From the IMG/VR virus record IMGVR_UViG_2563366891_000016: 40,687 bases of DNA; one strand, 5' to 3'. Made by a program: the position numbers and the translations under genes. Each line of letters begins with the position of its first letter. Positions within the stretch are counted from its first letter, which is position 1. The stretch is from a virus (taxonomy: Duplodnaviria; Heunggongvirae; Uroviricota; Caudoviricetes). The notes under the pieces are model-generated. The model saw only the letters and a program-made list of their open reading frames with translations. It was not told where the DNA came from and did no database searches. Positions 1 through 40,687 of the stretch are shown here, one piece after another.

Positions 1-957
1 ATGTCAGGTATAATTTCAAGTGCAACAGAATTCTTCAATAATACACTCCATTCAAATCAATACGAAATTAAAGATGCGAGCAAAGAAAAAATAAAGGATA
101 TATATAATAAATCGGTTGATTATGCAACTGCGAATAATCGCGATGTGATTATTGCAAAAATAGATTTATTTATTCAAAAAATCACCCTTAATTTATGGAC
201 AGCAAGTATCAAAAATGTGTCGTTAATCAGCAGAATAAATGAACTCAAACTGTGGGTCGATAAGTGTATTGATGACTGCTCTCAAGAGCAATTAGGCGAT
301 CGTGATTATATCGCTTTATATGTAGACAGGGCGATTTTTCATTATGCGATTAGTTTTGTCTGTAATAAAGTAGAACATCAGACAGTAAGTCTCATAGACA
401 GATGTACTTTTGATGTAGCAAGCCCGAATGGACTCCCATCAACTATTCAACTATTTTATGAAAAATCTATTGATGATGAATCTATAGCTTCGTTACATCT
501 ACAAACTTTAGGTGATGGTTTTATAAATTTAGAAAATGCATATCATCAATATGACGATATTCGCTTAAAACCCTTGGCTTCCCTTTTAATTTCATGTTCA
601 TATGGTAGTGCATTAGCAGATCTGGTAGCTGCAGTGGATATTGATGAGTATTGCGAAAAATACATAACAGATCAGGTGAAAACGTTATCTCAACAAGAGA
701 TGAAAAAAAATCTGAAGGAGATGAAAAATCTGGCAGTCGCAGGGAAACTGGATTTCAATGACATTGTAACTGATATGAAACGTCAGGAAGACGAAGGAAA
801 ACGAGTCCTAAAAGACGTTACAAAAATGCATGGTGCGGCGCAGAAATTAAATGACTTCGTACAATCGTGTGACCCAGATTCAACGGAATTGATTCAAATT
901 CCAAACGATATCTCTAATTCAATTTATGATCTATTTGGTATTGAACTAGTAAAATAA
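1..957 (+). CDS. AT-rich hypothetical protein on the host side of attL (318 aa); may correspond to the yjbL/yjbM region upstream of dusA
   Basis: Uninterrupted ORF from window position 1, strongly AT-rich, followed by an intrinsic terminator. The yjbL/yjbM correspondence rests only on position and recalled lengths (84+235 aa). Confidence 0.4.
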
Positions 958-997
958 TATGTGAAGTTCTTCGATGGTATGGAAGGTATTACATAAA

Positions 998-1027
998 AGA
1001 ACCCAATGCTTATTGGGTTCTTTTTTT
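998..1027 (+). terminator. Rho-independent terminator
   Basis: Perfect 10-bp stem agaacccaat/attgggttct with 4-nt loop followed by a run of 7 T. Confidence 0.7.
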
Positions 1028-1319
1028 CTCTATCAGTGCTATTAGCAGGGAGAGATATCACCGTAGTTTAATGTGTGATTTTTATTTATCGTCGAACCTG
1101 GATTGTTTATCATTGGCCTTAACAAAGCTAACGGCTAATAAGATTATTTCCATCACTTCGTGAGAGCTTCATGCCTTGAGAGGATCTCAATTTTCTTTTG
1201 CAATGAGACAGGCGCTTCCTGTTGTTATGGTATAGTACCCCGCTATTGAGCCTCCTGAACAGTGATGCTGAATAACATAACCCCATGATATATCGATAAA
1301 ATAATCTCTACATTTGAAA

Positions 1320-1445
1320 ATGCACGGTAATTCTGAAATGCAAAAAATCAACCAAACCAGCGCAATGCCTGAAAAAACTGACGTTCACTGGAGTGGTCGG
1401 TTTAGCGTTGCACCAATGCTCGATAGGATGTACCGTTTTTGAAAA
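1320..1445 (+). pseudogene. dusA: Displaced native 5' end of dusA (attL side), truncated to a 41-codon stub
   Basis: ATG at 1320 encodes MHGNSEMQKINQTSAMPEKTDVHWSGRFSVAPMLD then reads into phage DNA and stops; about 85% identical to the 5' end of the intact dusA at 39274. Homology ends abruptly after the shared atgctcga (1416-1423 / 39370-39377). Confidence 0.7.
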
Positions 1446-1567
1446 ACAAGTAGTTATACACTCTGTGGGAGCCTATTGGGAACCCGGCGTTTTCATTTCA
1501 AGGTGTAATCCATACGCGGCTTAAGAATGAGATATAATGCGATTTTTAGTGTTCCGCTTGAGAGGCC

Positions 1568-2104
1568 ATGATGCTTACCCTGGACGAGATAGGTCAATCA
1601 GTACGTAACAATATCCAGTTGATTATTGATCATGTCGGCTTACCTCTTGCTGTTGGTCCGCTCAGTGATGATGATTACAAGATTCTGTGTGGTGGCTATG
1701 GTGAGCTTGAATGGGACTATGCGTTAAGTACCTATGGCAACTCCAGAGAAAAGTATGAGTTCTGCATAAAACTTGTTCAGCAAGGTCGGGTTCAGGGAAT
1801 ACCATCAGGAGCAGCAATTTGTGTTTATGGGGTTGAAGAAAACATCTTTCGTATCCATATGATCGAAAGGTTTTCTAGAGAAGATGAATCTCACCCATTG
1901 AAAGGGCGCATGGTTTTACTCACTCTTATGAGTGCTTTTATATTTTGTAAAGCTGTTGAATGTAAAGTTGTCCACATTGTAGAGCCAGTACCAGAACTGG
2001 TGCAGTATTACGAGTCTTTTGGTTTCCGCATGGAACAGTGCGGTTATGTGATGTCGGCAGTCATTGATGAGCTGCAGGATATCTTTCTTAAATTTGCTCA
2101 GTAG
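1568..2104 (+). CDS. Hypothetical protein, possible GNAT-fold acyltransferase-like (178 aa)
   Basis: ORF with RBS gagagg and an upstream tataat-like -10. The C-terminal stretch AFIFCKAVECKVVHIVEPVPELVQYYESFGF resembles the GNAT motif B region, but no clear acetyl-CoA P-loop was seen. Confidence 0.45.
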   Translation: MMLTLDEIGQSVRNNIQLIIDHVGLPLAVGPLSDDDYKILCGGYGELEWDYALSTYGNSREKYEFCIKLVQQGRVQGIPSGAAICVYGVEENIFRIHMIERFSREDESHPLKGRMVLLTLMSAFIFCKAVECKVVHIVEPVPELVQYYESFGFRMEQCGYVMSAVIDELQDIFLKFAQ

Positions 2105-2839: not shown

Positions 2840-3415
2840 TCATAATTCTGTGCTGGTGGCAGGAATTAATTTCTGCCAGATAGCGGAAACATATTTTGCC
2901 TGATGACGGGCATCGGCCAGGGCGTTGTGCCGTTCGCCATCGAAAGGCATGTCCATTTTGGGGTCGAATCCGATGTAACGCCCAAGCGTAACGATCGTGC
3001 GTACATCGTGGTCATTCCAGTATGCCCACGGGCAGATTTGTCCTGCTCGCTCATAAGCTCCACGTAAAATTACGTTGTCGAAGGTGGCCCCGTTACCCCA
3101 GACTTTTAAATATTTCGTATTGGCTGCGTGCCGGTTAATGAAATGATTTAGTTCTGAGAGAGCATCGCTGATCGACAAAGTATCATCAATACAGATTGCA
3201 GCTCGTGCTTCAGTGCTTTGTTTCAACCACCACAGGATGGTATCGCCGTCAGGTGTAGCTCCTTGCCCCATAGCACTTTCCAGGCTAACAACCGTATAGA
3301 ATTCTTGTCCGATGTCTCCGGTTTCTGGAGTGAAGAACACCGCGCCAATGGAAACGATCGGTGCATCCTTATTTTTCCCCATCGTCTCAAGGTCGATCAT
3401 TAAGTTGTTCATCAC
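2840..3415 (-). CDS. DEDDh-family 3'-5' exonuclease (DnaQ-like)
   Basis: N-terminal MIDLETMG...SIGAV acidic motif and a C-terminal H-x4-D motif (ERHNALADA). Confidence 0.6.
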   Translation of the reverse strand: MMNNLMIDLETMGKNKDAPIVSIGAVFFTPETGDIGQEFYTVVSLESAMGQGATPDGDTILWWLKQSTEARAAICIDDTLSISDALSELNHFINRHAANTKYLKVWGNGATFDNVILRGAYERAGQICPWAYWNDHDVRTIVTLGRYIGFDPKMDMPFDGERHNALADARHQAKYVSAIWQKLIPATSTEL

Positions 3416-4035
3416 TTCACCTCCTGCGGCGGTTCCGGTAGCGGCATCCAGTGAGTTGCTTGCTCAATACCATTACCCGGCTTAATCGTTGCATCTCCGC
3501 GCCGAAAGGTGCTTCCGGTATAGCGTGCGGAGCATATTAGCGGTTCAACCAGAGGGCTATCGAAATTCACCGAAATAAGCACGTTCTGGCCCTTTTCAGG
3601 CATTCGATCACTACAGCTTATCCAACCATCCGGAGTTACCGGAGAGTTGCCCGACAGCTCGTTCAACTTGTAAGTCTGGCTTACAGGTTCGGCACCATTA
3701 AGCATGGCGGCGCGGCAGGCGTTCCAGCCTTCATCAAAGCCGACTATGCCATTATTTAAAGACGGACGAGCATCTGGCACCACCGGCACTGGCTTGGCTA
3801 TATATAGCGGCTGAACATACCAGCCCTTTGATAACCAACTGTCAGCAATGTTTTTACTCCTCGTTATTGCCGGAATACCTAAGCCATTTTCTGAATGCAG
3901 CCATGCCACCGGCTCCTCTTCTAGCGATGCCAGAGCAATTTCATAAGCACGGCGCTCAATATCGTCTCGAACCTCTAGGCTGCTGATTCGTTCTTTGATT
4001 TCTTTAATCAGTTCTTTATTGGTAAATGTGGTCAT
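3412..4035 (-). CDS. Phage protein with DUF551-like C-terminal domain (207 aa)
   Basis: C-terminal WISCSDRMPE...HWMPLPEPP; 4-nt start/stop overlap with the downstream gene. Confidence 0.5.
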   Translation of the reverse strand: MTTFTNKELIKEIKERISSLEVRDDIERRAYEIALASLEEEPVAWLHSENGLGIPAITRSKNIADSWLSKGWYVQPLYIAKPVPVVPDARPSLNNGIVGFDEGWNACRAAMLNGAEPVSQTYKLNELSGNSPVTPDGWISCSDRMPEKGQNVLISVNFDSPLVEPLICSARYTGSTFRRGDATIKPGNGIEQATHWMPLPEPPQEVK

Positions 4036-4397
4036 TATGCTCCAGCCTCCGGCGCTTTTGGCATTACTGCCCAGTGAGTGATATTGAAGTTTTCAAGGTC
4101 CCCGACCTGAAATGTCCACTGCCATTCTCCGGTTTCTTTTTGTCCCCAGGTGTACCAGAGAGAACGCCAGCCAATCAGCCAGCCTTCTCCGTTAGCATCA
4201 AATAACAGAACACTTTCATTTGCTGGTGGCAGTTCAGCTGACACTGGTATTATTTTGTTTTCCAGTGCCGCACATTTAGCTTCAAGCGCGTCGAATTTAC
4301 GTACCAGGTACTCAGCATTTGTTTCATTCACTTTCAGATCTCGCGGTACACATTTCCCGCGAAGAAACCCTTCCATTTCGAAAACATTCATGCGCAT
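4035..4397 (-). CDS. yfdS: YfdS-like phage protein with DUF551-like motif (120 aa)
   Basis: 120 aa, matching the recalled length of CPS-53 YfdS; C-terminal HWAVMPKAPE; overlaps flanking genes. Confidence 0.45.
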   Translation of the reverse strand: MRMNVFEMEGFLRGKCVPRDLKVNETNAEYLVRKFDALEAKCAALENKIIPVSAELPPANESVLLFDANGEGWLIGWRSLWYTWGQKETGEWQWTFQVGDLENFNITHWAVMPKAPEAGA

Positions 4398-4924
4398 TTG
4401 CGTAACTCCGATAACTCGTTAAAACGTTCCATAAACATCCCGTAGGCATGACCCGGTGCCAGTGGAATCACGTTGAACATCTCTGTTGCCGGGATGCCTT
4501 CCAGTACAGGCCAGAAAGAGCCATCATCAAGCCCGAGATCGCGGCGTTCGGTTGCCAGCATGATAAGATCGGCATATTTCACGGGCGTACTCATAACTGG
4601 GGGTAACCCGTATTTCTCACGGATTACGGCGTCAATTTTTTCTTCCATCCGTTTATAGTCAGGAAGAAGGCGTTTCAGTGGAGCGGGAATATCCTGGCAA
4701 TACGCTTCTGTTGCATCATGCATTAACGCTTCAAAAGCAAATTCCTGCGGCACCAGCTGGCTGCAAAGCACCGCATGTTGGGCGACACTGTAGAAGTGAG
4801 AAAGATGACCGGCAAAGCGGCAGATATTTGAAAGGGAAACCGCGATATCGTTAATCACGATGTCGTCTTTATTTATCTTGTCATAATAAAAATGCTTCCC
4901 GGAAAAAGTTTTAATAAATGACAT
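4388..4924 (-). CDS. yfdR: HD-domain phosphohydrolase (YfdR-like, 178 aa from MSFIK start)
   Basis: H...HD metal-binding motif (HAVLCSQLV...EALMHDATE); ATG at 4922-4924 with ggag RBS 7 nt upstream gives 178 aa, the recalled length of CPS-53 YfdR. Confidence 0.55.
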   Translation of the reverse strand: MSFIKTFSGKHFYYDKINKDDIVINDIAVSLSNICRFAGHLSHFYSVAQHAVLCSQLVPQEFAFEALMHDATEAYCQDIPAPLKRLLPDYKRMEEKIDAVIREKYGLPPVMSTPVKYADLIMLATERRDLGLDDGSFWPVLEGIPATEMFNVIPLAPGHAYGMFMERFNELSELRKCA

Positions 4925-16425: not shown

Positions 16426-16801
16426 GCTGGTTATCGCTGCTTTCTTCGTTACTGTCATTGGTTCTTTCATCTGGTCAGCCAACCACTACTACAACAAATA
16501 TCAGTACGAAAAGAAACGTGCTGATGAGGCTGTACGAAATGCTGAATCAGCAACAGCCATTACCAATAACGTCCTGCAATCACTACAAATCGTCAATACA
16601 GTTCTGGAGGCTAACCAGCATGCAAAACAGCAGATCGCACTGGAGTCACAGAGAACCCAGGAAGATATCAAAGTGGCTGTTGCGGATGATGATTGTGCTT
16701 CACGTACTGTGCCTGCTGCCGCTGCTGACCGGTTGCGGAAGTACGCGGACAGTTTACGTGCAGGTTCCAACGATGCCGTTACCGGCGAACCTGCTCGCTG
16801 A
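16409..16801 (+). CDS. Rz: Rz-like i-spanin
   Basis: N-terminal TM segment followed by a coiled-coil-like periplasmic region; immediately after R. Confidence 0.65.
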   Translation: MKLSYKLVIAAFFVTVIGSFIWSANHYYNKYQYEKKRADEAVRNAESATAITNNVLQSLQIVNTVLEANQHAKQQIALESQRTQEDIKVAVADDDCASRTVPAAAADRLRKYADSLRAGSNDAVTGEPAR

Positions 16802-16961
16802 AACTCCACAGCCAGTTATCCCCAATCCTCTGACTTATGGAGGTAGTCTGGATTTAAATGTCAGTTTATTGTCGGCATTATGGCAGTGCAATTTGGATAA
16901 AGCGGGGATTAGAAAGATAGAGGCGAGCCGGTCAGGTAGAAGTGAATCAGGCTCAAAGTGA
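16686..16961 (+). CDS. Rz1: Rz1-like o-spanin lipoprotein, overlapping Rz in the +1 frame
   Basis: Signal peptide with lipobox LLTGC, proline-rich mature part; begins inside Rz and extends 160 bp beyond its stop. Confidence 0.6.
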   Translation: MMIVLHVLCLLPLLTGCGSTRTVYVQVPTMPLPANLLAETPQPVIPNPLTYGGSLDLNVSLLSALWQCNLDKAGIRKIEASRSGRSESGSK

Positions 16962-17253
16962 AGCGGAAAAGCTCTTCGGCATAAGGTGACATAATAATAA
17001 TTACAGTCAACTGACTTTTGGAACGAAACATGTTTAACCTCCTTAATTGATGTTATTCGAGTGATGAAGGCATTCTGTCCTTCTGTAGTGTCCAGTAAAT
17101 CAAACAGGAAACTTGTCCAACGTGTTGGACAAGCCTCTCCATTAGTGAGTTGTATTGATCACAACTCTACAAAGAATTCATTACTGGGTAGATGAAAATA
17201 GTTTCACGATGAATGGAGGAGGCTATGTCGGTGGCTTCTTCATTGGAGTACAT

Positions 17254-17604
17254 ATGCCATCACGAATCCCAAAAGCCTGCCGTGTTCGTGGCTGCCGCCA
17301 TACCACCACAGACCCGTCAGGCTACTGCGAAAGCCACAAAAGCGAAGGCTGGAAGCAATACAAGCCAGGACAATCCCGTCATCAGCGCGGCTACGGTTCG
17401 AAATGGGATGCTATCCGTGAACGTGTACTGAAGCGTGACAAAGGCCTGTGTCAGTTATGTCTGCGTGTCGGTGTGGTGCGTGAGGCGAAAACCGTTGACC
17501 ACATCATCCCTAAAGCACATGGCGGCACTGATGCCGACAGTAATCTGCAGAGTCTGTGCTGGCCGTGCCACAAGGCGAAGACGGCCCGTGAACGGCTTAA
17601 GTGA
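17254..17604 (+). CDS. HNH endonuclease (terminase-associated)
   Basis: HNH/zinc motifs (CRVRGCRH, DHIIPKAHGG, CWPCH); positioned just upstream of the terminase genes, as in HK97. Confidence 0.75.
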   Translation: MPSRIPKACRVRGCRHTTTDPSGYCESHKSEGWKQYKPGQSRHQRGYGSKWDAIRERVLKRDKGLCQLCLRVGVVREAKTVDHIIPKAHGGTDADSNLQSLCWPCHKAKTARERLK

Positions 17605-17620
17605 TAATAATTCTCAACTT

Positions 17621-17690
17621 CCTGAGGGGAGGGGCGGGTCAAATCTCTGTGACCTGACGTCTTCCGGACTGCCCGCCCCATCGTTTTTTT
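17621..17690. other. Putative cos / packaging-initiation region
   Basis: GC-rich inverted repeat ggggcggg ... cccgcccc followed by a T-run, between the HNH and TerS genes where HK97-type cos lies. Confidence 0.3.
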
Positions 17691-17729
17691 ATACCCGCGA
17701 AAAATGAAATTTAACCAGGAGTGCCGCAT

Positions 17730-18224
17730 ATGGCTGGAACGGCGGGGCGTTCCGGGCGTCGCCCCAAGCCAACGGCGCGCAAGGCGCTGGCCGGAAACCC
17801 CGGCAAGCGAGCCCTGAATAAAGATGAACCTGTTTTTACGCCCATCAAAGGTGTTGAGCCACCGGAGTGGTTCGCTGAAGAAGATCTCCCTCTCGCTACG
17901 ATCATGTGGCAACTGACAACTAAAGAACTCTGCGGTCAGGGCCTGCTGTGCGTGACTGACCTCGCGGTGCTTGAGCGGTGGTGCGTGGCCTACGAGTTCT
18001 GGCGACGTGCCGTGAAAAATATTGCCAGACAGGGCAACACCATCACCGGTGCAATGGGCGGTATGGTCAAAAATCCGGAGCTGACCGCCAAAAAAGAACA
18101 GGAGTCCGAGATGAGCAGCACGGGGGCAATGCTCGGACTCGACCCCAGCAGCCGCCAGCGTCTGATTGGCCTGGCGGGGCAGAAGAAAGCCACTAACCCG
18201 TTTCTGAAAATCATCGAATCATGA
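17730..18224 (+). CDS. Terminase small subunit (P27/HK97 gp1-like)
   Basis: AGGAG RBS 8 nt before ATG 17730; directly upstream of and overlapping the large terminase. Confidence 0.65.
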
Positions 18225-19954
18225 GCCGGAAATCTTACCCCAACGTAAATGCTGCCAATCAGTATGCCCGTGATGTCGTGCGCGGAAAGATTGTGGCCTG
18301 CCAGTTTGTGATTCAGGCCTGCCAGCGCCATCTTGATGACCTGATGGCGGAAAAAAGTAAGTCGTTTCGTTACCGCTTCGACAAGGACCTGGCTGAACGG
18401 GCCGCGAAATTTATTCAGCTGTTGCCGCACACCAAGGGTGAGTGGGCATTCAAACGGATGCCCATCACGCTGGAGCCGTGGCAGCTATTTGTGATCTGCT
18501 GTGCGTTTGGCTGGGTCAATAAAGGCACCCGGTTGCGCCGCTTCCGGGAGGTGTATACCGAAATCCCCCGTAAGAACGGCAAATCAGCAATCTCTGCCGG
18601 TGTTGCCCTGTATTGTTTTGCCTGTGATAACGAGTTTGGCGCGGAAGTGTATTCCGGTGCCACGACAGAGAAACAGGCGTGGGAAGTCTTTCGCCCGGCG
18701 CGACTGATGTGTAAACGCACACCCATGCTGACGGAAGCGTTCGGGATTGAGGTTAACGCTTCAAACATGAACCGTCCGGAGGATGGCGCGCGGTTTGAAC
18801 CGCTGATCGGTAACCCCGGTGATGGTTCATCACCCCACTGTGCGGTGGTGGATGAATATCACGAGCACGCCACCGATGCGCTTTACACCACGATGCTTAC
18901 CGGGATGGGGGCGCGACGTCAGCCACTGATGTGGGCCATCACCACCGCCGGGTACAACATTGAGGGGCCGTGCTACGACAAGCGGCGGGAAGTCATCGAG
19001 ATGCTCAACGGCTCGGTGCCTAACGATGAACTGTTCGGGATCATCTATACCGTTGACGAAGGTGACGACTGGACCGACCCGCAGGTGCTGGAAAAAGCCA
19101 ATCCAAATATTGGCGTGTCGGTTTATCGCGAATTTTTGTTAAGTCAGCAGCAGCGTGCGAAAAATAACGCCCGCCTGGCAAACGTCTTTAAAACAAAACA
19201 CCTCAATATCTGGGTGTCGGCGCGTTCGGCTTATTTCAATCTGGTGAGCTGGCAGAGCTGCGAGGATAAATCACTGACCCTTGAGCAGTTCGAGGGGCAA
19301 CCGTGCATTCTGGCCTTTGACCTGGCGCGTAAGCTGGATATGAACAGCATGGCGCGACTTTATACCCGCGAGATTGACGGTAAAACGCATTACTACAGTG
19401 TGGCCCCGCGCTTCTGGGTACCGTATGACACGGTGTACAGCGTCGAGAAAAATGAAGATCGCCGGACAGCCGAACGCTTTCAGAAATGGGTGGAAATGGG
19501 CGTCCTGATCGTTACCGATGGTGCAGAGGTGGATTATCGCTACATCCTCGAAGAGGCCAAAGCGGCGAACAAAATCAGCCCGGTCAGTGAGTCACCCATC
19601 GACCCTTTCGGGGCGACCGGGCTGTCACATGACCTTGCTGATGAAGACCTGAATCCCGTTACTATCGTCCAGAACTTCGCCAATATGTCCGACCCGATGA
19701 AAGAGCTGGAAGCAGCGATTGAATCGGGGCGCTTTCATCATGACGGCAATCCCATCATGACCTGGTGTATCGGCAATGTGGTCGGCAAAAACATGCCTGG
19801 TAACGATGATTTAGTGAAGCCCGTCAAGGAGCAGGCGGAAAACAAAATCGATGGTGCGGTTGCACTGATTATGACGATCGGTCGGGCAATGCTCAAAGAA
19901 CCTGACGATTTCCTCTCATCTCTTGATCCGGACGATGATCTCTTAATTCTATGA
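18221..19954 (+). CDS. Terminase large subunit
   Basis: 577-aa protein in the conserved position between small terminase and portal; Walker A-like EIPRKNGKS and Walker B-like [10 protein letters not shown]. Confidence 0.85.
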
Positions 19955-20112
19955 AATCACTAATTGCTGATGTTATCGGGCTGGCTGGTTTTGGCCTGCT
20001 TACGTGCGGGGTTTACCTGCAGTTTGGTATGGCTCCGGCTCTGATTTTGTCCGGTGCTTTACTGCTGGTGGGCGCACTGGCTATGGCCAGAAGGGGGACG
20101 CGTGCTGCTTGA
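19951..20112 (+). CDS. Small hydrophobic membrane protein (53 aa), below the ORF-track cutoff
   Basis: ATG overlaps the terminase stop (ATGA); translation [53 protein letters not shown] has two predicted TM segments. Confidence 0.4.
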
Positions 20113-21328
20113 TGCTCTGTTCAGAAGTAAATCACTGGAGAATCCTTCCACCCCGATAACCGGTGATGCCGTTGATACTGATGGGCTGTTCCGGGCAGAC
20201 GTTTATGTCAGTCCTGAGACTGCGATGAAACTGGCTGCGGTGTATTCCTGTATCTATGTCCTGTCTTCCAGCCTTGCCCAGATGCCGTTGCATGTTATGC
20301 GCAGGCACAAGGGGAAGGTTGAACCCGCACGCGATCATCCGGCGTTTTATCTGGTTCATGATGAGCCCAATACCTGGCAAACCAGCTACAAATGGCGCGA
20401 ACTGAAGCAACGTCACATCCTTGGCTGGGGGAATGGGTATACCTGGGTGAAACGTAATCGTCGCGGTGAAGTCATATCCCTGGATTGCTGTATGCCGTGG
20501 GAAACGACGCTGATGAATACTGGTGGCCGATATACCTACGGTTTGTACAACGAATATGGGGCGTTTGCGATCAGTCCGGACGATATGATCCACATCCGTG
20601 CGCTGGGTAATAATCAGAAGATGGGGCTGAGTCCGATTATGCAACATGCCGAAACAATAGGCATGGGGATGAGCGGTCAGAAGTACACAGAAAGCTTCTT
20701 CAGCGGTAATGCCCGTCCGGCGGGGATAGTATCCGTTAAAAGCGGACTCAATAAGGAAAGCTGGGGCTGGCTTAAAGATCAGTGGCAGAAGGCATCGCAG
20801 GCGTTACGCCGCCAGGAAAACAAAACCATGCTGCTGCCAGCCGATCTGGATTACAAGGCACTGACTGTGTCGCCAGTTGACGCTCAGATCATTGACATGA
20901 TGAAGCTGAACCGTTCAATGATCGCCGGTATTTTCAATATTCCTGCGCACATGATTAATGACCTCGAAAAAGCCACCTTCTCCAATATTTCTGCGCAGGC
21001 GATTCAGTTTGTCCGCTACACGATGATGCCGTGGGTGACGAACTGGGAGCAGGAGCTTAACCGTCGCTTGTTTACCCGCGCTGAGTTAGCCGCCGGGTAT
21101 TACGTCAGGTTCAATCTGACGGGGCTTTTACGCGGAACTCCGCAGGAGCGCGCGCAATTCTATCACTTCGCTATTACCGATGGATGGATGAGCCGTAATG
21201 AGGCCCGCGCATTCGAGGATATGAATCCGGTTGAAGGGCTGGATGAGATGCTGGTAAGCGTGAATGCTGCTAACCCGGCAGGAGATTTTAAGCCCCCAAA
21301 AAATGATGAGGGAAAAACCAATGAATGA
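20054..21328 (+). CDS. Portal protein (HK97 family); start may be GTG 20054 or GTG 20102
   Basis: About 410-424 aa in the conserved position after terminase; GTG 20102 has aaggggg RBS. Confidence 0.8.
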   Translation: MLYCWWAHWLWPEGGRVLLDALFRSKSLENPSTPITGDAVDTDGLFRADVYVSPETAMKLAAVYSCIYVLSSSLAQMPLHVMRRHKGKVEPARDHPAFYLVHDEPNTWQTSYKWRELKQRHILGWGNGYTWVKRNRRGEVISLDCCMPWETTLMNTGGRYTYGLYNEYGAFAISPDDMIHIRALGNNQKMGLSPIMQHAETIGMGMSGQKYTESFFSGNARPAGIVSVKSGLNKESWGWLKDQWQKASQALRRQENKTMLLPADLDYKALTVSPVDAQIIDMMKLNRSMIAGIFNIPAHMINDLEKATFSNISAQAIQFVRYTMMPWVTNWEQELNRRLFTRAELAAGYYVRFNLTGLLRGTPQERAQFYHFAITDGWMSRNEARAFEDMNPVEGLDEMLVSVNAANPAGDFKPPKNDEGKTNE

Positions 21329-21923
21329 CCGTGAAATCCGTTGTTACAGCGGTGAGGTGCGTGCTGAGAGGCATGACGATAACCCGGCGCACATTATCGG
21401 TTATGGATCGGTGTTTGACTGTCGTTCTGAGCTGATATTCGGTTCATTCCGCGAAATCATCCGGCCCGGCGCTTTTGACGATGTGCTTGGTGATGATGTA
21501 CGCGCACTGTTTAACCACGATCCTAATTTTATTCTTGGGCGTAGTGCAGCAGGCACGCTGAATCTTTCAGTTGATGAGCGCGGATTACGCTATGACATCC
21601 AGGCTCCGGAGACACAGACCATTCGTGATCTGGTGCTGGCCCCGATGCAACGTGGAGATATTAACCAGTCATCTTTCGCTTTCCGTGTCGCCCGTGACGG
21701 TGAGGAGTGGTATCAGGATGAGGATGGGGTTGTTATTCGCGAGATAACCCGCTTTTCCCGTCTGCTGGATGTCAGTCCTGTGACATATCCTGCCTATCAG
21801 GAGGCTGACTCGGCTGTTCGCTCCATGAAAGCATGGCAGGAGGCGCGCAACAGCGGCGCGCTACAGAAAGCCATTAATCAACGTATGGCGCGTGAACGCG
21901 TCCTGACCCTTCTTAACGCGTAA
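21321..21923 (+). CDS. Prohead maturation protease (HK97 family)
   Basis: ATG at 21321 overlaps the portal stop, RBS gaggga; 200-aa protein between portal and major capsid. Confidence 0.7.
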   Translation: MNDREIRCYSGEVRAERHDDNPAHIIGYGSVFDCRSELIFGSFREIIRPGAFDDVLGDDVRALFNHDPNFILGRSAAGTLNLSVDERGLRYDIQAPETQTIRDLVLAPMQRGDINQSSFAFRVARDGEEWYQDEDGVVIREITRFSRLLDVSPVTYPAYQEADSAVRSMKAWQEARNSGALQKAINQRMARERVLTLLNA

Positions 21924-24468: not shown

Positions 24469-25025
24469 AACTGACTCCTGTTATTGCTGCGCTGCGTGCC
24501 CGCTGCCCGTATTTTGAAAACCGGGTGGCAGGCGCGGCCCAGTTCAAAAATCTGCCGGAGGTCGGAAAGCTGAAACTCCCGGCGGCATATGTGGTACCGG
24601 GGGATGATTCTCCGGGAGAAAACAAAAGCCAGACCGACTACTGGCAGGAGCTGAAAGAGGGTTTCTCCGTGGTTGTCATACTGAGTAACGGGCGTGATGA
24701 GCGCGGTCAGTTTGCCTCGTATGATGTGGTGGACGATGTCCGGCAGATGCTCTTTAAGGCCCTGCTGGGCTGGAACCCGGAAGCGTGCGGTAACCCGATT
24801 ACCTATGACGGCGGCACGCTGCTGGATCTGAATCGTCATGAGCTGATTTATCAGTTCGATTTTTCGGTCATCAGCGAGCTGACTGAAGACGATACCCGCC
24901 AGCAGGATGACCTGAACAGTCTGGATGAACTGCAAACGCTGGCGATTGATGTTGATTATCTTGAGCCCGGTAACGGGCCTGACGGCGATATCGAACATCA
25001 CACCGAAATAACCCTTCCTTCCTGA
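24465..25025 (+). CDS. Tail terminator / tail completion protein (Mu gp37-like)
   Basis: 186-aa protein immediately upstream of the sheath/tube pair. Confidence 0.45.
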   Translation: MKLTPVIAALRARCPYFENRVAGAAQFKNLPEVGKLKLPAAYVVPGDDSPGENKSQTDYWQELKEGFSVVVILSNGRDERGQFASYDVVDDVRQMLFKALLGWNPEACGNPITYDGGTLLDLNRHELIYQFDFSVISELTEDDTRQQDDLNSLDELQTLAIDVDYLEPGNGPDGDIEHHTEITLPS

Positions 25026-35352: not shown

Positions 35353-35747
35353 TGAACAGATACGCATTAATTAAAAACAATATTGTTGTTAATATCGTTG
35401 TTTGGGATGGCGCAGGAGATATGTTTGCCGATTTTAAGGCAGTTAATATCTCTGGTGTTGCAGTTGATATTGGATGGATCTATGACGGAAATAATTTCAC
35501 AGCCCCCCCCGAACCTGAGAAAACTAAAGAACAGTTAATCCAGGAAGCAGAACTCGAAAAAGAAGGGCGCATACGTGCTGCAAATGATTTTATTAACAGC
35601 AAGCAGTGGCCCGGTAAAGCGGCTATTGGTCGTCTGAAAGGTGACGAACTGGAGCAATATAATTTGTGGCTGGATTATCTGGACGCACTGGATGCTGTAG
35701 ATACTTCAACTGCACCAGAAATAGACTGGCCTCAGCAATCAGAATAA
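35352..35747 (+). CDS. Tail fiber assembly protein (Tfa-like)
   Basis: TAATG overlap with the fiber stop; [20 protein letters not shown] is a typical Tfa N-terminus. Confidence 0.7.
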   Translation: MNRYALIKNNIVVNIVVWDGAGDMFADFKAVNISGVAVDIGWIYDGNNFTAPPEPEKTKEQLIQEAELEKEGRIRAANDFINSKQWPGKAAIGRLKGDELEQYNLWLDYLDALDAVDTSTAPEIDWPQQSE

Positions 35748-35783
35748 AAATATGGGGCAGCGCCCCATATTTCTCGTTGACTG

Positions 35784-36830
35784 TCATATTAAAGCTTTTC
35801 GTAAAAGTGTCTTGCCGATTAAAACACCTCTTCGCTCTACAAGCTTGTGCGCAAAATAACAAACTATAAATAACAATAATAATATTTGAATGTTACTATT
35901 GATGTATTTAATTCCGATTTTATTAACTACTAATAACAAAGAGTCCCAAATCCAGTTATGAAATAAGTACACAGCATAAGTCATTTCAGATAGCAAATTG
36001 CATGCTTTGGATTCAATGAATCTATCTTTAAATAACCACGAACAAAGAAAAATAACAGTTCCTGTGAATGCGTAGTTGTAGTGCCCCCAGAATGGGTTTA
36101 TTTTTTCAATGAGAGATAAATGAAGATAGAACATAGTTACGATGGATATTAAAGCAACAATCCGATTAACTAACTTATGCTCTGTAAGGTACACTACTAC
36201 ACCTATAAACAAAAATGGCGTATACAAGGTGAAGTAAGCATTATGAAAATCCTTCGCTACAGGGAAAGGATTAATGGTGGATATAAATAATGATATAAAA
36301 AGTAGTAGAACTGTTAAAACGTTTCCTTTATTTATGAGTCCGACTTTTTTAACCAAACCCATAAACACATAGAACAGCATTTCTATTCTTAACGTCCATT
36401 CAACACCAGCCAATGAAAGAGGTGTGTTAAAGAAATCGCCTATAAGCAATAATCTAGGTATTATTATGCTCAGAGGTGGAATGTTTCCACCATTATAGTA
36501 TTGGATCAACATTTCAGCTAAAACAGCAAAAATATAGAGTGGGTATATTCTAAATATTCTTTTTAAATAAAATTCAAAAGTTGCTTCTTTTTGTAGTACG
36601 TGGGTGATGATGTACCCTGAAACAAGAAAGAAGATCACAACCCCCATTGCACCACCGAAACTGGCATCTGCTAGTAATCCGTAAAAAAGCCTCAGTGTAA
36701 AGTGGTTACTTGGATCGTTCGCCAACGAAGATAAATCTTTGTTGAACTTATGACCTAACACCACAAGGGAGAACGCAATTACACGCATGTAATCTAAAAA
36801 AAGAATTCGACGATTGTTCATGATTTTCAT
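35784..36830 (-). CDS. Acyltransferase family 3 integral membrane protein (O-antigen acetyltransferase-like)
   Basis: AT-rich gene; polytopic membrane protein with FLDYMRVIAFSLVVLGH near the N-terminus (OafA/Oac-type conserved R and H); sits between tail genes and the integrase, as O-antigen modification genes do in Sf6/SfV-type phages. Confidence 0.7.
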   Translation of the reverse strand: MKIMNNRRILFLDYMRVIAFSLVVLGHKFNKDLSSLANDPSNHFTLRLFYGLLADASFGGAMGVVIFFLVSGYIITHVLQKEATFEFYLKRIFRIYPLYIFAVLAEMLIQYYNGGNIPPLSIIIPRLLLIGDFFNTPLSLAGVEWTLRIEMLFYVFMGLVKKVGLINKGNVLTVLLLFISLFISTINPFPVAKDFHNAYFTLYTPFLFIGVVVYLTEHKLVNRIVALISIVTMFYLHLSLIEKINPFWGHYNYAFTGTVIFLCSWLFKDRFIESKACNLLSEMTYAVYLFHNWIWDSLLLVVNKIGIKYINSNIQILLLLFIVCYFAHKLVERRGVLIGKTLLRKALI

Positions 36831-36905
36831 TTAATTTATTGAGTTGTGATCATTTTATAGCAACTAACCATTGTTAGCTATGCTGTCACCTTGTAAACAA
36901 GATGG

Positions 36906-37232
36906 TTATGTGACATCACCGTCGATCCAGTCCTCCCACCACTGCATCATTTCTCTGCGCTTATCGAGATACTGAGCATGGTTATAAATCCAACGCACAG
37001 ATCCGCCGTTGGCATGCGCCAGTTGAGCTTTAATGACTTTGCGACGCAACTCAATAATCAAGAGCATGGAGTCAATCATCCAATCATCAATTGATCGAGA
37101 ATTGAAGTGGTTGTTGAGACAAAACTGAGACACACAAAGCCTTGCACTTGATTGCAAGGCTTTGGGCTCTTCTGTGGGGGCTACATGTCTGAAGAGCGTT
37201 GTGCCGTATTTGTGACATGCATATAACAACAT
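36906..37232 (-). CDS. Hypothetical protein; real product may be the C-terminal ~57 aa
   Basis: N-terminal half has poor composition; C-terminal ELRRKVIKAQLAHANGGSVRWIYNHAQYLDKRREMMQWWEDW looks protein-like. Confidence 0.3.
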   Translation of the reverse strand: MLLYACHKYGTTLFRHVAPTEEPKALQSSARLCVSQFCLNNHFNSRSIDDWMIDSMLLIIELRRKVIKAQLAHANGGSVRWIYNHAQYLDKRREMMQWWEDWIDGDVT

Positions 37233-37290
37233 AATGCATCAACTTTCTGTTTGTGCCATCAGCTATGGCTTAGTGAATGCAGTTAATGCT

Positions 37291-37345
37291 TGCTAGAATG
37301 ATTGGTGCTACAGATTCGTAATGCGAAGGTTGTAGGTTCGTCCCC
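37291..37345 (+). other. tRNA-Thr-like fragment (pseudo-tRNA / relic attachment core)
   Basis: ATTCGTAATGCGAAGGTTGTAGGTTCG at 37314-37340 matches the anticodon-arm to T-arm segment of tRNA-Thr(CGU) as recalled, but the flanks cannot form an acceptor stem or T-stem. Confidence 0.4.
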
Positions 37346-37496
37346 CTTTTCAGTACTACCTAAATCAATAAGTTACCTAACTTTCAGTTATGACAGAAAG
37401 ATATATATGCCAAGTAAAGTATAGAGAAACTGTCAAAGCAATAAAGGCTGGTGCTCCGTGTGTGGCGGCTGATGTATAGACATTTATGCAGATGAA

Positions 37497-37523
37497 ACGA
37501 AAAAAAGCCCGCATCTGCGGGCT
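37497..37523 (-). terminator. Intrinsic terminator on the minus strand
   Basis: Stem agcccgca/tgcgggct with 2-nt loop, followed on the minus strand by a run of 7 U. Confidence 0.65.
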
Positions 37524-37777
37524 TTCATGTCATTAGGGCACTGCGGCTCCTTTGCGTATCCTTTTTGTTTCCTCACAGTCTGGTCGGTGCCCTGCTGAGA
37601 CCAATAACTTCCAGTTTTTGTTAGTGTTATCCTTACACCGTCCAATCATGATTGGTGGGCTGGCGGGAGTTGAAACTGCAGGCACGTCGTATGCAAGAAC
37701 ATGCTGTGGCTGGCTGCTTTACTTTCGATAGTGCGAGTATTGAATGATTTCCAGCCGTTACCGATTTTACGTGTTAA

Positions 37778-38026
37778 TTAGTGAACAAACCACTCGTCAG
37801 CAGATTCCCAGGTATCTTTCAGAGTCTCCTGAACAAAAGTTTTTACAGAATCCTTATCTGCGGTGCGTGTAACAGAAAGGCCATCGTTGCTGGTGGCTTT
37901 TACGATCACCTCTACATCATCATAACGTTTACTGATGCGTCGGGTTAATTCTTCCTTTAACGCGTCCACAGCACCGGTTGGCATTTTAGTCATTTTTTCT
38001 TTGGCTATGCAGATTTCAATACGCAT
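37778..38026 (-). CDS. DinI-like protein
   Basis: 82 aa with MRIEICIAK start and [10 protein letters not shown] end, matching the DinI family pattern. Confidence 0.65.
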
Positions 38027-38087: not shown

Positions 38088-39185
38088 TCAAGAGGTCTTA
38101 TTTCTGCTCCTTTGGAGCTCTTCAAAACGATTATGTAAAGATTTCGGATACAGTTCGGTATATACCTGCCATAGCACGTTTAATGAACGATGCCCTGTAA
38201 CTTGGGCGACTTCCTCAATACTAAAACCAGCCTCAAATAAGCGACTTGCCCCTTCTCTACGCAAATCATGGTATCGCAGATCTTTAATACCTAATTTGCT
38301 TCTTACCCTCTGAAATCCCGCAGTAACAGAAGTGCTGTTATATGGAAAAATGAATTCCGATTTTTGGGGCTGTCGTTGGACGATATCCCAGGCTTCCCCA
38401 AGCAAGGCTACTTTCATGTGGTTGCCTTCCTTTTTGCGTGGATCTTTCCTGTCTCTTACGAGTATAGATTTTTGTTCTTGGTCGAGATCTTCCCATCGTA
38501 ACCGGCATACTTCTCCGATTCGCATACAGGACCACACAGAAAATTTGAGGATATCAACGAACGGAATTTTTGAGCATTTATGAGTAGATCGTTGTTGAAG
38601 GCCTTCAATGAGCATGTCCAGTTCATCAGATGCTGGTCTACGATTACGACGGTTTGATTTACCAATCAAACCAAGTTTAAGTAGATATGGACGAGCGCTT
38701 TTCGCTGGGTTTGATGTGTAATTAATTCCGTATACAGGTTTGGCTGCATCCAGAACACTGCCAAGATAACTAACATCGTGGCTGACTGTTGCTGGACCTG
38801 CACCAGCGTTGTTTCTTAGCCTGCAATGTTCAATTACGTCATTTTCGGTCAGTTCGGATAGTTTGATCGCGGAGATGTCACTATCCATAAGCAGTTCCAG
38901 CACATATCTTTTAGTACGGCCTGCTTTACCTCCGGCATTTGGGTCATTTAAATATTTGTGTAGTAAGTCACGGACTGTAAGTCCGTCAACTGCATTTGAT
39001 GATGGAATGCCATATAGATCTAATTCCATCACTTTCTGTGTACCCCATGTTTTGGCATGGGCATGTTTAGGGAATGTTTTGCTTTCCCTGTAAGTGATAA
39101 CACCTTTTTCTTTGATAATCACATTACAGCGATAGCGTGGTGTGCCATCGGATTTTAGTCGTTTCTCTATGTTATAGTACGCCAT
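38088..39185 (-). CDS. int: Tyrosine site-specific integrase (dusA-associated type)
   Basis: 365-aa protein with a candidate catalytic R...HxxR...Y arrangement (RIGE, HDLRR, C-terminal Y); encoded directly next to attR and the phage-supplied dusA 5' end. Confidence 0.85.
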   Translation of the reverse strand: MAYYNIEKRLKSDGTPRYRCNVIIKEKGVITYRESKTFPKHAHAKTWGTQKVMELDLYGIPSSNAVDGLTVRDLLHKYLNDPNAGGKAGRTKRYVLELLMDSDISAIKLSELTENDVIEHCRLRNNAGAGPATVSHDVSYLGSVLDAAKPVYGINYTSNPAKSARPYLLKLGLIGKSNRRNRRPASDELDMLIEGLQQRSTHKCSKIPFVDILKFSVWSCMRIGEVCRLRWEDLDQEQKSILVRDRKDPRKKEGNHMKVALLGEAWDIVQRQPQKSEFIFPYNSTSVTAGFQRVRSKLGIKDLRYHDLRREGASRLFEAGFSIEEVAQVTGHRSLNVLWQVYTELYPKSLHNRFEELQRSRNKTS

Positions 39186-39204
39186 TACACGACCTCGTTA
39201 TTTC

Positions 39205-39240
39205 GGGTTCCCATAAAATGTGGGAACCTGTGCGGGAACC
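39205..39240. promoter_or_regulatory. Repeated (T/C)GGGAACC motifs between int and dusA (putative integrase arm sites and/or dusA promoter)
   Basis: gggttccc (inverted) at 39205-39212, tgggaacc at 39221-39228, cgggaacc at 39233-39240; a further copy tgggaacc at 1477-1484 just inside attL. Confidence 0.4.
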
Positions 39241-39273
39241 TAACGCGAGAAAAATAGCCTGAAATGTTCAAAA

Positions 39274-40311
39274 ATGCACGATAATCCTGAAACACAGAAA
39301 ACTAATCAAACCAGCGTGATGCCTGAAAAAACTGGCGCTTACTGGAGTTCCCGGTTTAGCATTGCTCCTATGCTCGACTGGACGGACAGACATTGCCGCT
39401 ATTTCTTGCGTCTGCTTTCCCGCAATACGTTGCTGTATACCGAAATGGTGACTACAGGGGCGATTATTCACGGTAAAGGTGATTACCTGGCGTACAGTGA
39501 AGAAGAACATCCGGTAGCATTGCAACTGGGCGGTAGCGATCCGGCGGCGCTGGCGCAGTGTGCAAAGCTGGCAGAAGCGCGCGGATATGATGAGATCAAC
39601 CTGAATGTCGGCTGCCCGTCTGACCGGGTGCAGAACGGCATGTTTGGGGCGTGTCTGATGGGTAATGCGCAGCTGGTTGCCGACTGCGTGAAAGCGATGC
39701 GCGATGTGGTGTCGATTCCGGTGACGGTGAAAACGCGTATTGGCATCGACGACCAGGACAGCTATGAATTTCTCTGCGATTTCATCAACACCGTTTCCGG
39801 CAAAGGCGAGTGTGAGATGTTCATCATCCACGCACGTAAAGCCTGGCTTTCGGGGTTAAGCCCGAAAGAAAACCGTGAAATCCCGCCGCTCGATTATCCG
39901 CGTGTGTATCAACTGAAGCGTGACTTTCCGCATCTGACAATGTCGATTAACGGTGGCATCAAGTCGCTGGAAGAGGCTAAAGCGCATTTGCAACATATGG
40001 ATGGCGTGATGGTCGGGCGCGAAGCGTATCAGAATCCGGGTATTCTGGCGGCGGTAGACCGAGAGATCTTTGGTTCCTCGGATACCGATGCCGATCCGGT
40101 GGCGGTAGTGCGCGCCATGTATCCGTACATTGAGCGTGAACTCAGCCAGGGGACGTATCTTGGCCATATTACCCGGCATATGCTGGGCTTGTTCCAGGGT
40201 ATTCCTGGCGCGCGGCAGTGGCGGCGTTATTTAAGTGAAAATGCCCATAAAGCGGGTGCAGACATTAATGTGCTGGAACACGCGCTCAAACTGGTGGCGG
40301 ATAAGCGTTAA
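39274..40311 (+). CDS. dusA: tRNA-dihydrouridine synthase A, with phage-supplied 5' end
   Basis: 345-aa ORF with the DusA TIM-barrel sequence as recalled ([13 protein letters not shown] ... NLNVGCPS ... VKTRIG); the first ~35 codons belong to the prophage arm. Confidence 0.9.
39320..39377 (+). other. attR crossover region within the dusA 5' end
   Basis: Identical blocks shared with attL (atgcctgaaaaaactg, atgctcga); homology ends at 39377 on this side and at 1423 on the attL side. Confidence 0.55.
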
Positions 40312-40340
40312 CTTTTCACCAAAAAATAGTCAAATTCACC

Positions 40341-40369
40341 ACGCCCTGCGCACCGTCGCGGGGCGTTTT
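40341..40369 (+). terminator. Intrinsic terminator after dusA
   Basis: Stem acgccctgcg/cgcggggcgt (one mismatch) followed by tttt. Confidence 0.5.
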
Positions 40370-40393
40370 GCTGTTAAATCAATAGATTATTTT

Positions 40394-40408
40394 TGGCATG
40401 ATTCTTGT
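40394..40408 (+). promoter_or_regulatory. Sigma-54-type promoter-like element upstream of pspG
   Basis: TGGCAT-N5-TTGT resembles the -24/-12 consensus TGGCAC-N5-TTGC, about 37 bp before the pspG ATG. Confidence 0.4.
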
Positions 40409-40444
40409 AATGCCAGCAAGAGATTTCATATTTGGGAGAGCATC

Positions 40445-40687
40445 ATGCTGGAACTACTTTTTGTGATTGGCTTTTTTGTCATGTTGATGGTCACCGGCGT
40501 TTCGTTGCTGGGCATTATCGCCGCGCTGGTTGTGGCGACGGCCATTATGTTCCTCGGCGGTATGCTGGCATTGATGATTAAGTTGCTGCCGTGGTTACTC
40601 CTGGCGATTGCGGTGGTGTGGGTTATTAAGGCGATTAAAGCACCAAAAGTGCCGAAATATCAGCGTTATGACCGCTGGCGTTACTAA
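40445..40687 (+). CDS. pspG: Phage shock protein G (80 aa inner-membrane protein)
   Basis: ATG at 40445 with gggagag RBS; 80-aa hydrophobic protein MLELLFVIGFFVML..., immediately downstream of dusA. The 150-aa track ORF is an upstream overextension. Confidence 0.8.
   Translation: MLELLFVIGFFVMLMVTGVSLLGIIAALVVATAIMFLGGMLALMIKLLPWLLLAIAVVWVIKAIKAPKVPKYQRYDRWRY

Follow-up and report, generated by a model that had tools for sequence, protein, structure and literature searches.

A prophage integrated in the 5' end of dusA and the phage-borne segment that completes the reading frame of the gene

Introduction

A family of tyrosine integrases encoded beside the 5' end of the tRNA-modification gene dusA was described in more than 200 bacteria by Farrugia et al. 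(2015, NAR 43:4547; PMC4482086). In the dusA islands (DAI elements) that carry these enzymes, the 5' end of dusA is replaced by element-borne sequence, and the wild-type gene is reformed on excision. Homologues of prtN were found in 64% of the islands, half of the elements were prophages, Escherichia was over-represented, and phage mEp460 was among the BLASTP matches of the dusA-associated integrases (PMC4482086). For phage phi1720a-02, both attL and attR in the dusA gene of Citrobacter rodentium were confirmed by PCR and sequencing by Balasubramanian et al. (2019; PMC6328086), who also described the in-frame "phi-dusA'" fusion and found that the regenerated attP accounted for 0.44% of junction reads in vivo. 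Moreover, dusA is listed as a routine insertion site of Stx prophages. It should be stressed that the phenomenon is already known, its description dating from 2015 and its experimental verification, for an integrase almost identical (99%) to the one analyzed in this work, from 2019.

Here, we present the analysis of a dusA-associated element contained in a stretch of viral DNA of 40,687 nt (IMG/VR record IMGVR_UViG_2563366891_000016), hereinafter called the window. The same int-dusA junction is present in 733 of 5,426 complete Escherichia coli genomes (~13.5%, about one in seven), and 337 of the 5,426 share the left junction including its cargo. Since the junction is common in E. coli and the mechanism is known, the prophage itself raises no new question; its boundaries are now fixed to the base, and the main use of the results is in annotation.

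Results and Discussion

Two Copies of the dusA 5' End

The original prediction, made from the nucleotide sequence of the window, placed a prophage in the 5' end of dusA, between two homologous but non-identical copies of this region, and assumed that the gene was restored by a phage-borne segment. A repeat finder applied to the whole window returned one standout direct repeat, i.e., 1317-1433 versus 39271-39387 (117 nt, 80% identity, spacing of 37,954 bp). In the blastn comparison of the left junction with the whole window, 1317-1423 matched 39271-39377 (82.2% over 107 nt, E = 4e-26), which bears out the presence of the two copies, and the next-best matches all had E > 1. The likeness begins 3-4 nt before the ATG and, as had been predicted, stops sharply after the common ATGCTCGA; beyond these limits the matches are at chance level (16/60 in the 60 nt upstream and 19/60 in the 60 nt downstream). 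Scanning of both strands revealed only two occurrences of ATGCTCGA in the window (1416-1423 and 39370-39377).

Short direct repeats are common in this 40-kb window, with many weak families returned by the repeat finder, and the two copies might be thought to reflect a local duplication or chance similarity unrelated to site-specific recombination, with the boundaries of the element lying elsewhere. The difference between E = 4e-26 and E > 1 for the next matches speaks against such an origin, as do the boundaries, which coincide to the base with the limits found in empty sites and in free phages (both presented below). The ungapped alignments of the rebuilt attB and attP refute it, and we consider it next to impossible.

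The Left Copy Is the Native dusA 5' End

Judging from the window alone, either copy could be native, and it is the right one that is attached to the working gene. The assignment could therefore be reversed, with a native right-hand 5' segment and a left stub representing a dusA fragment carried by the phage. Window 960-1700 was used as a query in the search of the 5,426 complete E. coli genomes, and uninterrupted dusA loci numbering in the thousands matched the left copy at 96-99.8% identity, with the match ending exactly at window position 1423 (query position 464). Two strains served as empty-site references, i.e., E. coli O139:H1 strain P15-25 and K-12 EMG2, and the gene order in both of them is zur - DUF2713 - dusA - pspG - qorA. 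Up to ATGCTCGA, the empty sites have the base of the left copy wherever the two copies differ (19 of 19 positions), and from ATGCTCGA onward they agree with the right junction throughout. Thus, the left copy is the native dusA 5' end, as had been presumed in the original prediction, and the dusA body on the right is native as well, with 96 nt of foreign sequence at its 5' end. Furthermore, the right-hand version adjoins the integrase gene in the free phages mEp460, SKA5, and phi1720a-02. An alignment of both junctions with an uninterrupted dusA had been proposed as a check; it placed the boundaries where they were expected, and the rebuilt attB (1-1423 joined to 39378-40687) aligned without gaps along 2,733 nt of the empty locus of P15-25, from which it differed by 13 mismatches (99.52% identity). 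The empty-site alignments, together with the rebuilt attB and attP, refute the reversed assignment, which retains only a negligible probability, and in the following the left copy is treated as native.

The native region upstream of dusA, comprising the promoter and the leader (1025-1319, + strand), is identical to that of the empty-site loci and is now parted from the dusA body by the prophage. It is preceded by a terminator-like hairpin (995-1024) and includes one promoter-like site (1119-1147). The displaced native 5' end forms a stub ORF (1320-1442, + strand; translation MHGNSEMQKINQTSAMPEKTDVHWSGRFSVAPMLDRMYRF), composed of 35 native codons, five codons of the phage arm, and a TGA, and its residues up to the core are identical to those of the empty-site dusA. 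The stub is truncated and runs into phage DNA, in line with the original prediction; its predicted size of 41 codons and its end at 1445 had to be corrected to 40 codons plus TGA, ending at 1442. In other lysogens the equivalent stub is labelled by PGAP as an incomplete tRNA-dihydrouridine synthase, and the displaced dusA stub accounts for pseudogenes of this kind being called at attL in numerous genomes of E. coli.

It is also worth mentioning that the DUF2713 gene (window 1-957, + strand) is an intact ORF of 318 codons both here and in P15-25, and is annotated as frameshifted in K-12 and in strain 13E0725. The flank 1-1423 is AT-rich (35% GC), and the reconstructed empty locus taken as a whole is only 87.5% identical to that of K-12.

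Attachment Core and Prophage Boundaries

The counterpart of the empty site is found in free phages, in which the two arms of the element are adjacent. In mEp460 (NC_019716), the match of the right arm ends at record position 24592 (equal to window 39377) and that of the left arm starts at 24593 (equal to 1424); likewise, window 39377 is directly followed by 1424 in SKA5 (OR670062). The rebuilt attP (38088-39377 joined to 1424-2900) aligned with mEp460 without gaps over 2,767 nt (98.7% identity); its first 1,351 nt (98.0%) also aligned across the junction of SKA5, whose depositors annotated a 41-codon "tRNA-dihydrouridine" ORF at attP. The right copy was thereby confirmed to come from the phage arm.

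The four-way alignment of attP (mEp460), attB (P15-25), attL, and attR displays the classical reciprocal pattern around a common core of 8 bp. Between the last attB-specific and the first attP-specific base, ATGCTCGA is the sole stretch identical in all four sites. Its copies at 1416-1423 (+ strand) and 39370-39377 (+ strand) are the cores of attL and attR, respectively, and strand exchange must have taken place somewhere between 1415/1416 and 1423/1424. Given the spacing of the copies and with the core counted once, on the right, the prophage occupies 1424-39377 (37,954 bp). The predicted junction of the attP circle, in which 39377 is joined to 1424, reads ...CCTATGCTCGATAGGATG..., and the restored attB is predicted to read ...CCAATGCTCGACTGGACG...

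Phage phi1720a-02 (phiStx2dact, KF030445) has a near-identical P arm, phage-borne dusA', and P' arm, together with the same core, although the published core comprises seven bases, compared to the eight shared here. The semi-conserved att motif, for which Farrugia et al. gave a 21-bp consensus, was represented in the comparison by the published C. rodentium attB string (PMC6328086); the reverse complement of this attB, GCTCCCATGCTCGACTGGA, agrees at 18 of 19 positions with attR (GCTCCTATGCTCGACTGGA) and at 15 of 19 with attL (GCACCAATGCTCGATAGGA).

The P' arm of attP (1424-1484, + strand; 61 bp) contains two TGGGARCC repeats (1466-1473 and 1477-1484) and is conserved in mEp460, SKA5, phi1720a-02, and lysogen 13E0725. 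Among the phages and lysogens compared, the sequences part right after 1484, where the cargo differs, and this conservation of the P' arm up to 1484 suggests an attP of about 240 bp. On the other side, the spacer between int and the phage-borne dusA' (39186-39273; 88 bp), which belongs to the P arm, carries three GGGAACC repeats (39206-39212 on the - strand, and 39222-39228 and 39234-39240 on the + strand) and is almost invariant among the window, mEp460, and phi1720a-02. In total, five copies of the GGGAACC/TGGGARCC repeat are present on the two attP arms (starting at 1466, 1477, 39206, 39222, and 39234), compared to only four elsewhere in the 40 kb of the window. The arm copies are conserved in mEp460, SKA5, and phi1720a-02, and the TGGGAACC repeats are candidate arm-type binding sites of the integrase. 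Rfam and tRNA scans of the whole window gave no match, which leaves no role for a tRNA or another known RNA at the attachment site.

Integrase and Candidate Excisionase

The dusA-specific tyrosine integrase (365 aa) is encoded at 38088-39185 on the - strand, divergently from dusA. It matches the Pfam Phage_integrase family with E 7.5e-21 (75 bits, cutoff 27) and contains the motifs MRIGE (R222), HDLRR (H306, R309), GHRS (H332), and VYTEL (Y342), the roles of these residues being assigned by motif position. The start of int lies 88 bp from the start of dusA (39274, + strand), so that the gene adjoins the dusA 5' end. The protein is identical at 361/365 positions to the integrase of mEp460, i.e., the phage named by Farrugia et al. 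(PMC4482086), which agrees with the predicted behaviour of a dusA-specific integrase, and at 362/364 positions to the integrase of phi1720a-02. In the annotation of mEp460, its integrase is grouped with BcepIL02 and Rci-type integrases.

All testable defining features of DAI elements were found in this element, namely a tyrosine integrase, homology with DAI integrases, adjacency to dusA, replacement of the 5' end, and the att motif. As in the described elements, int lies at the dusA 5' end, the insertion falls in the conserved 5' region, and a new 5' end is supplied, with the original one remaining at the opposite end of the element. The semi-conserved att repeats and the prtN homologue are further common features, and nothing of substance distinguishes the element from this group. 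The homologous stretch is long, comprising about 104 nt here, i.e., the whole 5' end, in contrast to the att repeats of 21-28 bp in Acinetobacter and Pseudomonas.

The PrtN-like protein (2522-2830, - strand) is a candidate excisionase (recombination directionality factor). It matches Pfam PyocinActivator (E 4e-23) and PHROG 1300, "excisionase" (E 8e-40), and the homologue of its gene in mEp460 is labelled as an excisionase. The PrtN-like protein probably helps excision.

A DinI-like gene (37778-38026, - strand) is localized directly downstream of int and accompanies the int-attP cassette in mEp460, SKA5, phi1720a-02, and many Stx phages.

We are almost certain that the element is a temperate phage, now integrated, whose integrase belongs to the dusA-specific class, and no observation speaks against this structure. 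The phage tyrosine integrase recombined attP with an attB located inside codons 33-35 of the host dusA, with strand exchange falling within the common ATGCTCGA. The P arm of attP carries an imitation of dusA codons 1-32 with about 80% identity. At attR, this imitation continues without a frame break into the native dusA body, so that a chimeric DusA of full length is encoded, and at attL the native promoter and the first 35 codons remain as the 40-codon stub running into the P' arm. Excision by the integrase, probably with the PrtN-like protein, would rebuild both wild-type dusA and attP; it is supported indirectly by the predicted attP carried by free phages and by the excision demonstrated for the 99%-identical integrase of phi1720a-02.

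Chimeric dusA

The phage-borne replacement of the dusA 5' end (39274-39369, + strand) covers codons 1-32 and is near-identical to the corresponding part of attP in mEp460, phi1720a-02, and SKA5; compared to attB, 19 of 104 nt differ in the phage-borne copy. The resulting gene (39274-40311, + strand) is an open frame of 345 codons, in which codons 1-32 are of phage origin, 33-35 constitute the core, and 36-345 are native. Its 345-aa product matches Pfam Dus with E 8e-105 and NCBIfam DusA with 581 bits (cutoff 397). The in-frame fusion with the dusA body that had been predicted, and with it the completion of the gene by a phage-borne segment, was therefore confirmed by the frame and by the four-way alignment, and dusA in these lysogens should be regarded as a host-phage chimera and not as a disrupted gene.

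Ten residues differ between the chimeric and the native DusA within the first 32, and four further codons carry synonymous changes. Eight of the ten replacements fall in a non-conserved N-terminal extension, the other two being G26S and V30I. The alignment with the solved structures of the Dus of Thermus thermophilus (3B0V/3B0P) starts at residue 24 of DusA (partner segment RLSVAPMVDRTDRH) and places the core codons M33-L34-D35 within the conserved beta-1 motif, which is aligned with SVAPMVDRTDRH of the T. thermophilus enzyme. This position fits the published reason for the conservation of the target and for the need of its replacement. The codon comparison of both copies over codons 1-34 (10 non-synonymous versus 4 synonymous changes) revealed no constraint on the segment as a whole. 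Within the phage-borne segment, only the last ~26 nt (R27-D35) show signs of constraint: they are the same in the window, mEp460, and phi1720a-02, in contrast to the variable codons upstream of them. The invariance of these ~26 nt is in line with the published view that a replacement for the beta-1 strand of the TIM barrel has to come from the element.

One may ask whether the restoration is only apparent, the structure being as described and the prophage being fixed or the chimeric dusA silent or inactive. A simple consensus scan of the 88-bp int-dusA' spacer found no sigma-70 site, a result which does not exclude a promoter; the replaced segment as a whole is weakly constrained, as shown by the codon counts given above, and excision of some dusA islands was reported to be very rare, i.e., <1e-7 (PMC4482086). 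On the other hand, the integrase is full length with its catalytic motifs, and its E311 variant is shared with the experimentally active integrase of phi1720a-02. The PrtN-like gene and both att arms are intact, and the virion genes have kept their full length, with 97-98% identity to their counterparts in the free phages SfV and SKA5. With respect to the gene itself, the beta-1 segment RFS(V/I)APMLD is kept in the chimera and is invariant among the phage copies, and putative -10/-35 elements were noted upstream of dusA after integration in other hosts (Farrugia et al., PMC4482086). Considering all this, an immobile prophage or a silent or inactive dusA seems rather unlikely, though not to the degree of the two explanations dismissed above. 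This copy of the prophage is probably still able to excise, and the chimeric dusA is presumably transcribed and active. A phage promoter of the chimeric dusA, if any, must lie in 39186-39273.

Cargo Slot behind attL

The region between the P' arm and a conserved 57-aa ORF with its terminator (slot 1485-2520) contains different cargo in phages with the same attP. In the window, the gene adjoining attL (1568-2104, + strand) is co-directional with the dusA stub and encodes a 178-aa protein belonging to PHROG 4350 ("unknown"), for which no family was found in Pfam, NCBIfam, or PADLOC and whose homologues are confined to Enterobacterales. Its AlphaFold2 model has a pLDDT of 89.9, and the Foldseek matches in the PDB were GNAT acetyltransferases, including KacT, AtaT, and TacT, which are toxins acetylating tRNA (TM ~0.56); a GNAT fold is thus confidently predicted. 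We do not claim that this protein is a tRNA-acetylating toxin, since a TM of ~0.56 was obtained for many different GNAT enzymes and gives no substrate call. An antitoxin-like gene upstream of it is also lacking, and the downstream 57-aa ORF follows unrelated cargo too.

The 57-aa ORF closing the slot (2301-2474, + strand; PHROG 2741) is followed by a strong intrinsic terminator (2493-2518). Its counterpart in SKA5 aligns to the window at 99%, and an ORF of equal size (174 nt; compared by size) follows different cargo in 13E0725. The slot of E. coli 13E0725 (3026-4419 of the locus compared) holds genes for a Panacea-domain protein and a hypothetical protein, and that of SKA5 (16618-18012) genes for two hypothetical proteins of similar size. 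In all compared cases the cargo is co-oriented with the dusA stub.

The scan between the stub and the first cargo gene found no consensus promoter or terminator. On this circumstantial basis, together with the shared orientation and the maintenance of the architecture across phages with different cargo, integration may be tentatively viewed as a reciprocal promoter swap, in which transcription from the host dusA promoter would continue past the 40-codon stub into the cargo and dusA would come under phage-borne control. We consider this speculative reading more doubtful than probable. If it were true, expression of the cargo would be integration-dependent and host-driven, and the control of dusA would lie beside the promoter region of int. 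A minor point of possible value is the variable cargo slot at attL, given its closeness to the host promoter.

Phage Backbone and Probable Exchange of the Integration Module

The early region of the prophage (roughly 1.4-9 kb) is mEp460-like, and the virion genes (~17.6-34.6 kb) are 97-98% identical to those of Shigella phage SfV, its relatives, and SKA5. The SfV-type virion module (terminase, portal, capsid, Mu-like sheath, tube, and baseplate) is present, with gene sizes matching those of SKA5. As the ORF sizes agree with those of the free phages, the virion genes being full length, the prophage looks intact.

Each of the closest phages shares only a part of this organization. The int-attP-cargo-early region of mEp460 is ~98% like that of the window, but this phage differs by a lambda-like tail fibre. 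SKA5 has int, attP, and the SfV-like virion module in common with the window (27.4 kb aligned, at 95-99% except for three short pieces at 86-90%), whereas its attP-slot cargo and invertase/tail-fibre region differ. In contrast to the prophage analyzed here, phi1720a-02 is a lambdoid Stx2 phage with other virion genes and other attP cargo, and its host gene is the dusA of C. rodentium. SfV and its relatives (SfII, SfI, and SfIV) share the module from terminase to baseplate (97-98% identity) and an O-antigen-modification-type gene near the int end; unlike in these phages, only a 3' remnant of a thrW-type integrase and its attP is found here, and the DAI cassette serves integration.

SfV integrates at tRNA-thrW with its own integrase, and CPS-53 (KpLE1) at argW. 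The element described here lies in dusA, and no tRNA gene was detected in the window. If SfV and CPS-53 use thrW and argW, the integration module of the window is of the mEp460/phi1720a-02 type. The phage is a mosaic, combining SfV-like virion genes with an integration module which, given these insertion sites, is neither that of SfV nor that of CPS-53. Of the label "CPS-53/SfV-like" assigned in the original prediction, the SfV part is correct as far as the virion genes are concerned, since 70% of window 14000-37700 aligns to SfV at 97.7% identity. The CPS-53 part is only loosely justified, the resemblance consisting in the names of early genes (YfdN, YfdP, YfdQ, and YfdR) in the annotations of related phages.

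The thrW-type remnant (36906-37379) comprises a 108-codon ORF corresponding to the C-terminus of an integrase (PHROG) and an attP remnant, and matches HK75, mEpX2, HK446, and SfX. It is flanked on one side by an AT-rich O-acetyltransferase gene (35784-36830, - strand; 33% GC) and on the other by the DinI-int cassette, and it is consistent with an integration module that is not that of SfV or CPS-53. From its position and matches, it looks like the footprint of a swap of the integration module, from thrW to dusA, on an SfV-like backbone, which is another minor point of possible value.

In SKA5 (19784-21509), the place of the region 35595-37668, with the O-acetyltransferase gene and the integrase remnant, is taken by a DNA invertase together with a tail-fibre segment that can be inverted. 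In this phage group, the tail-fibre end of the virion module thus represents the second hotspot of recombination.
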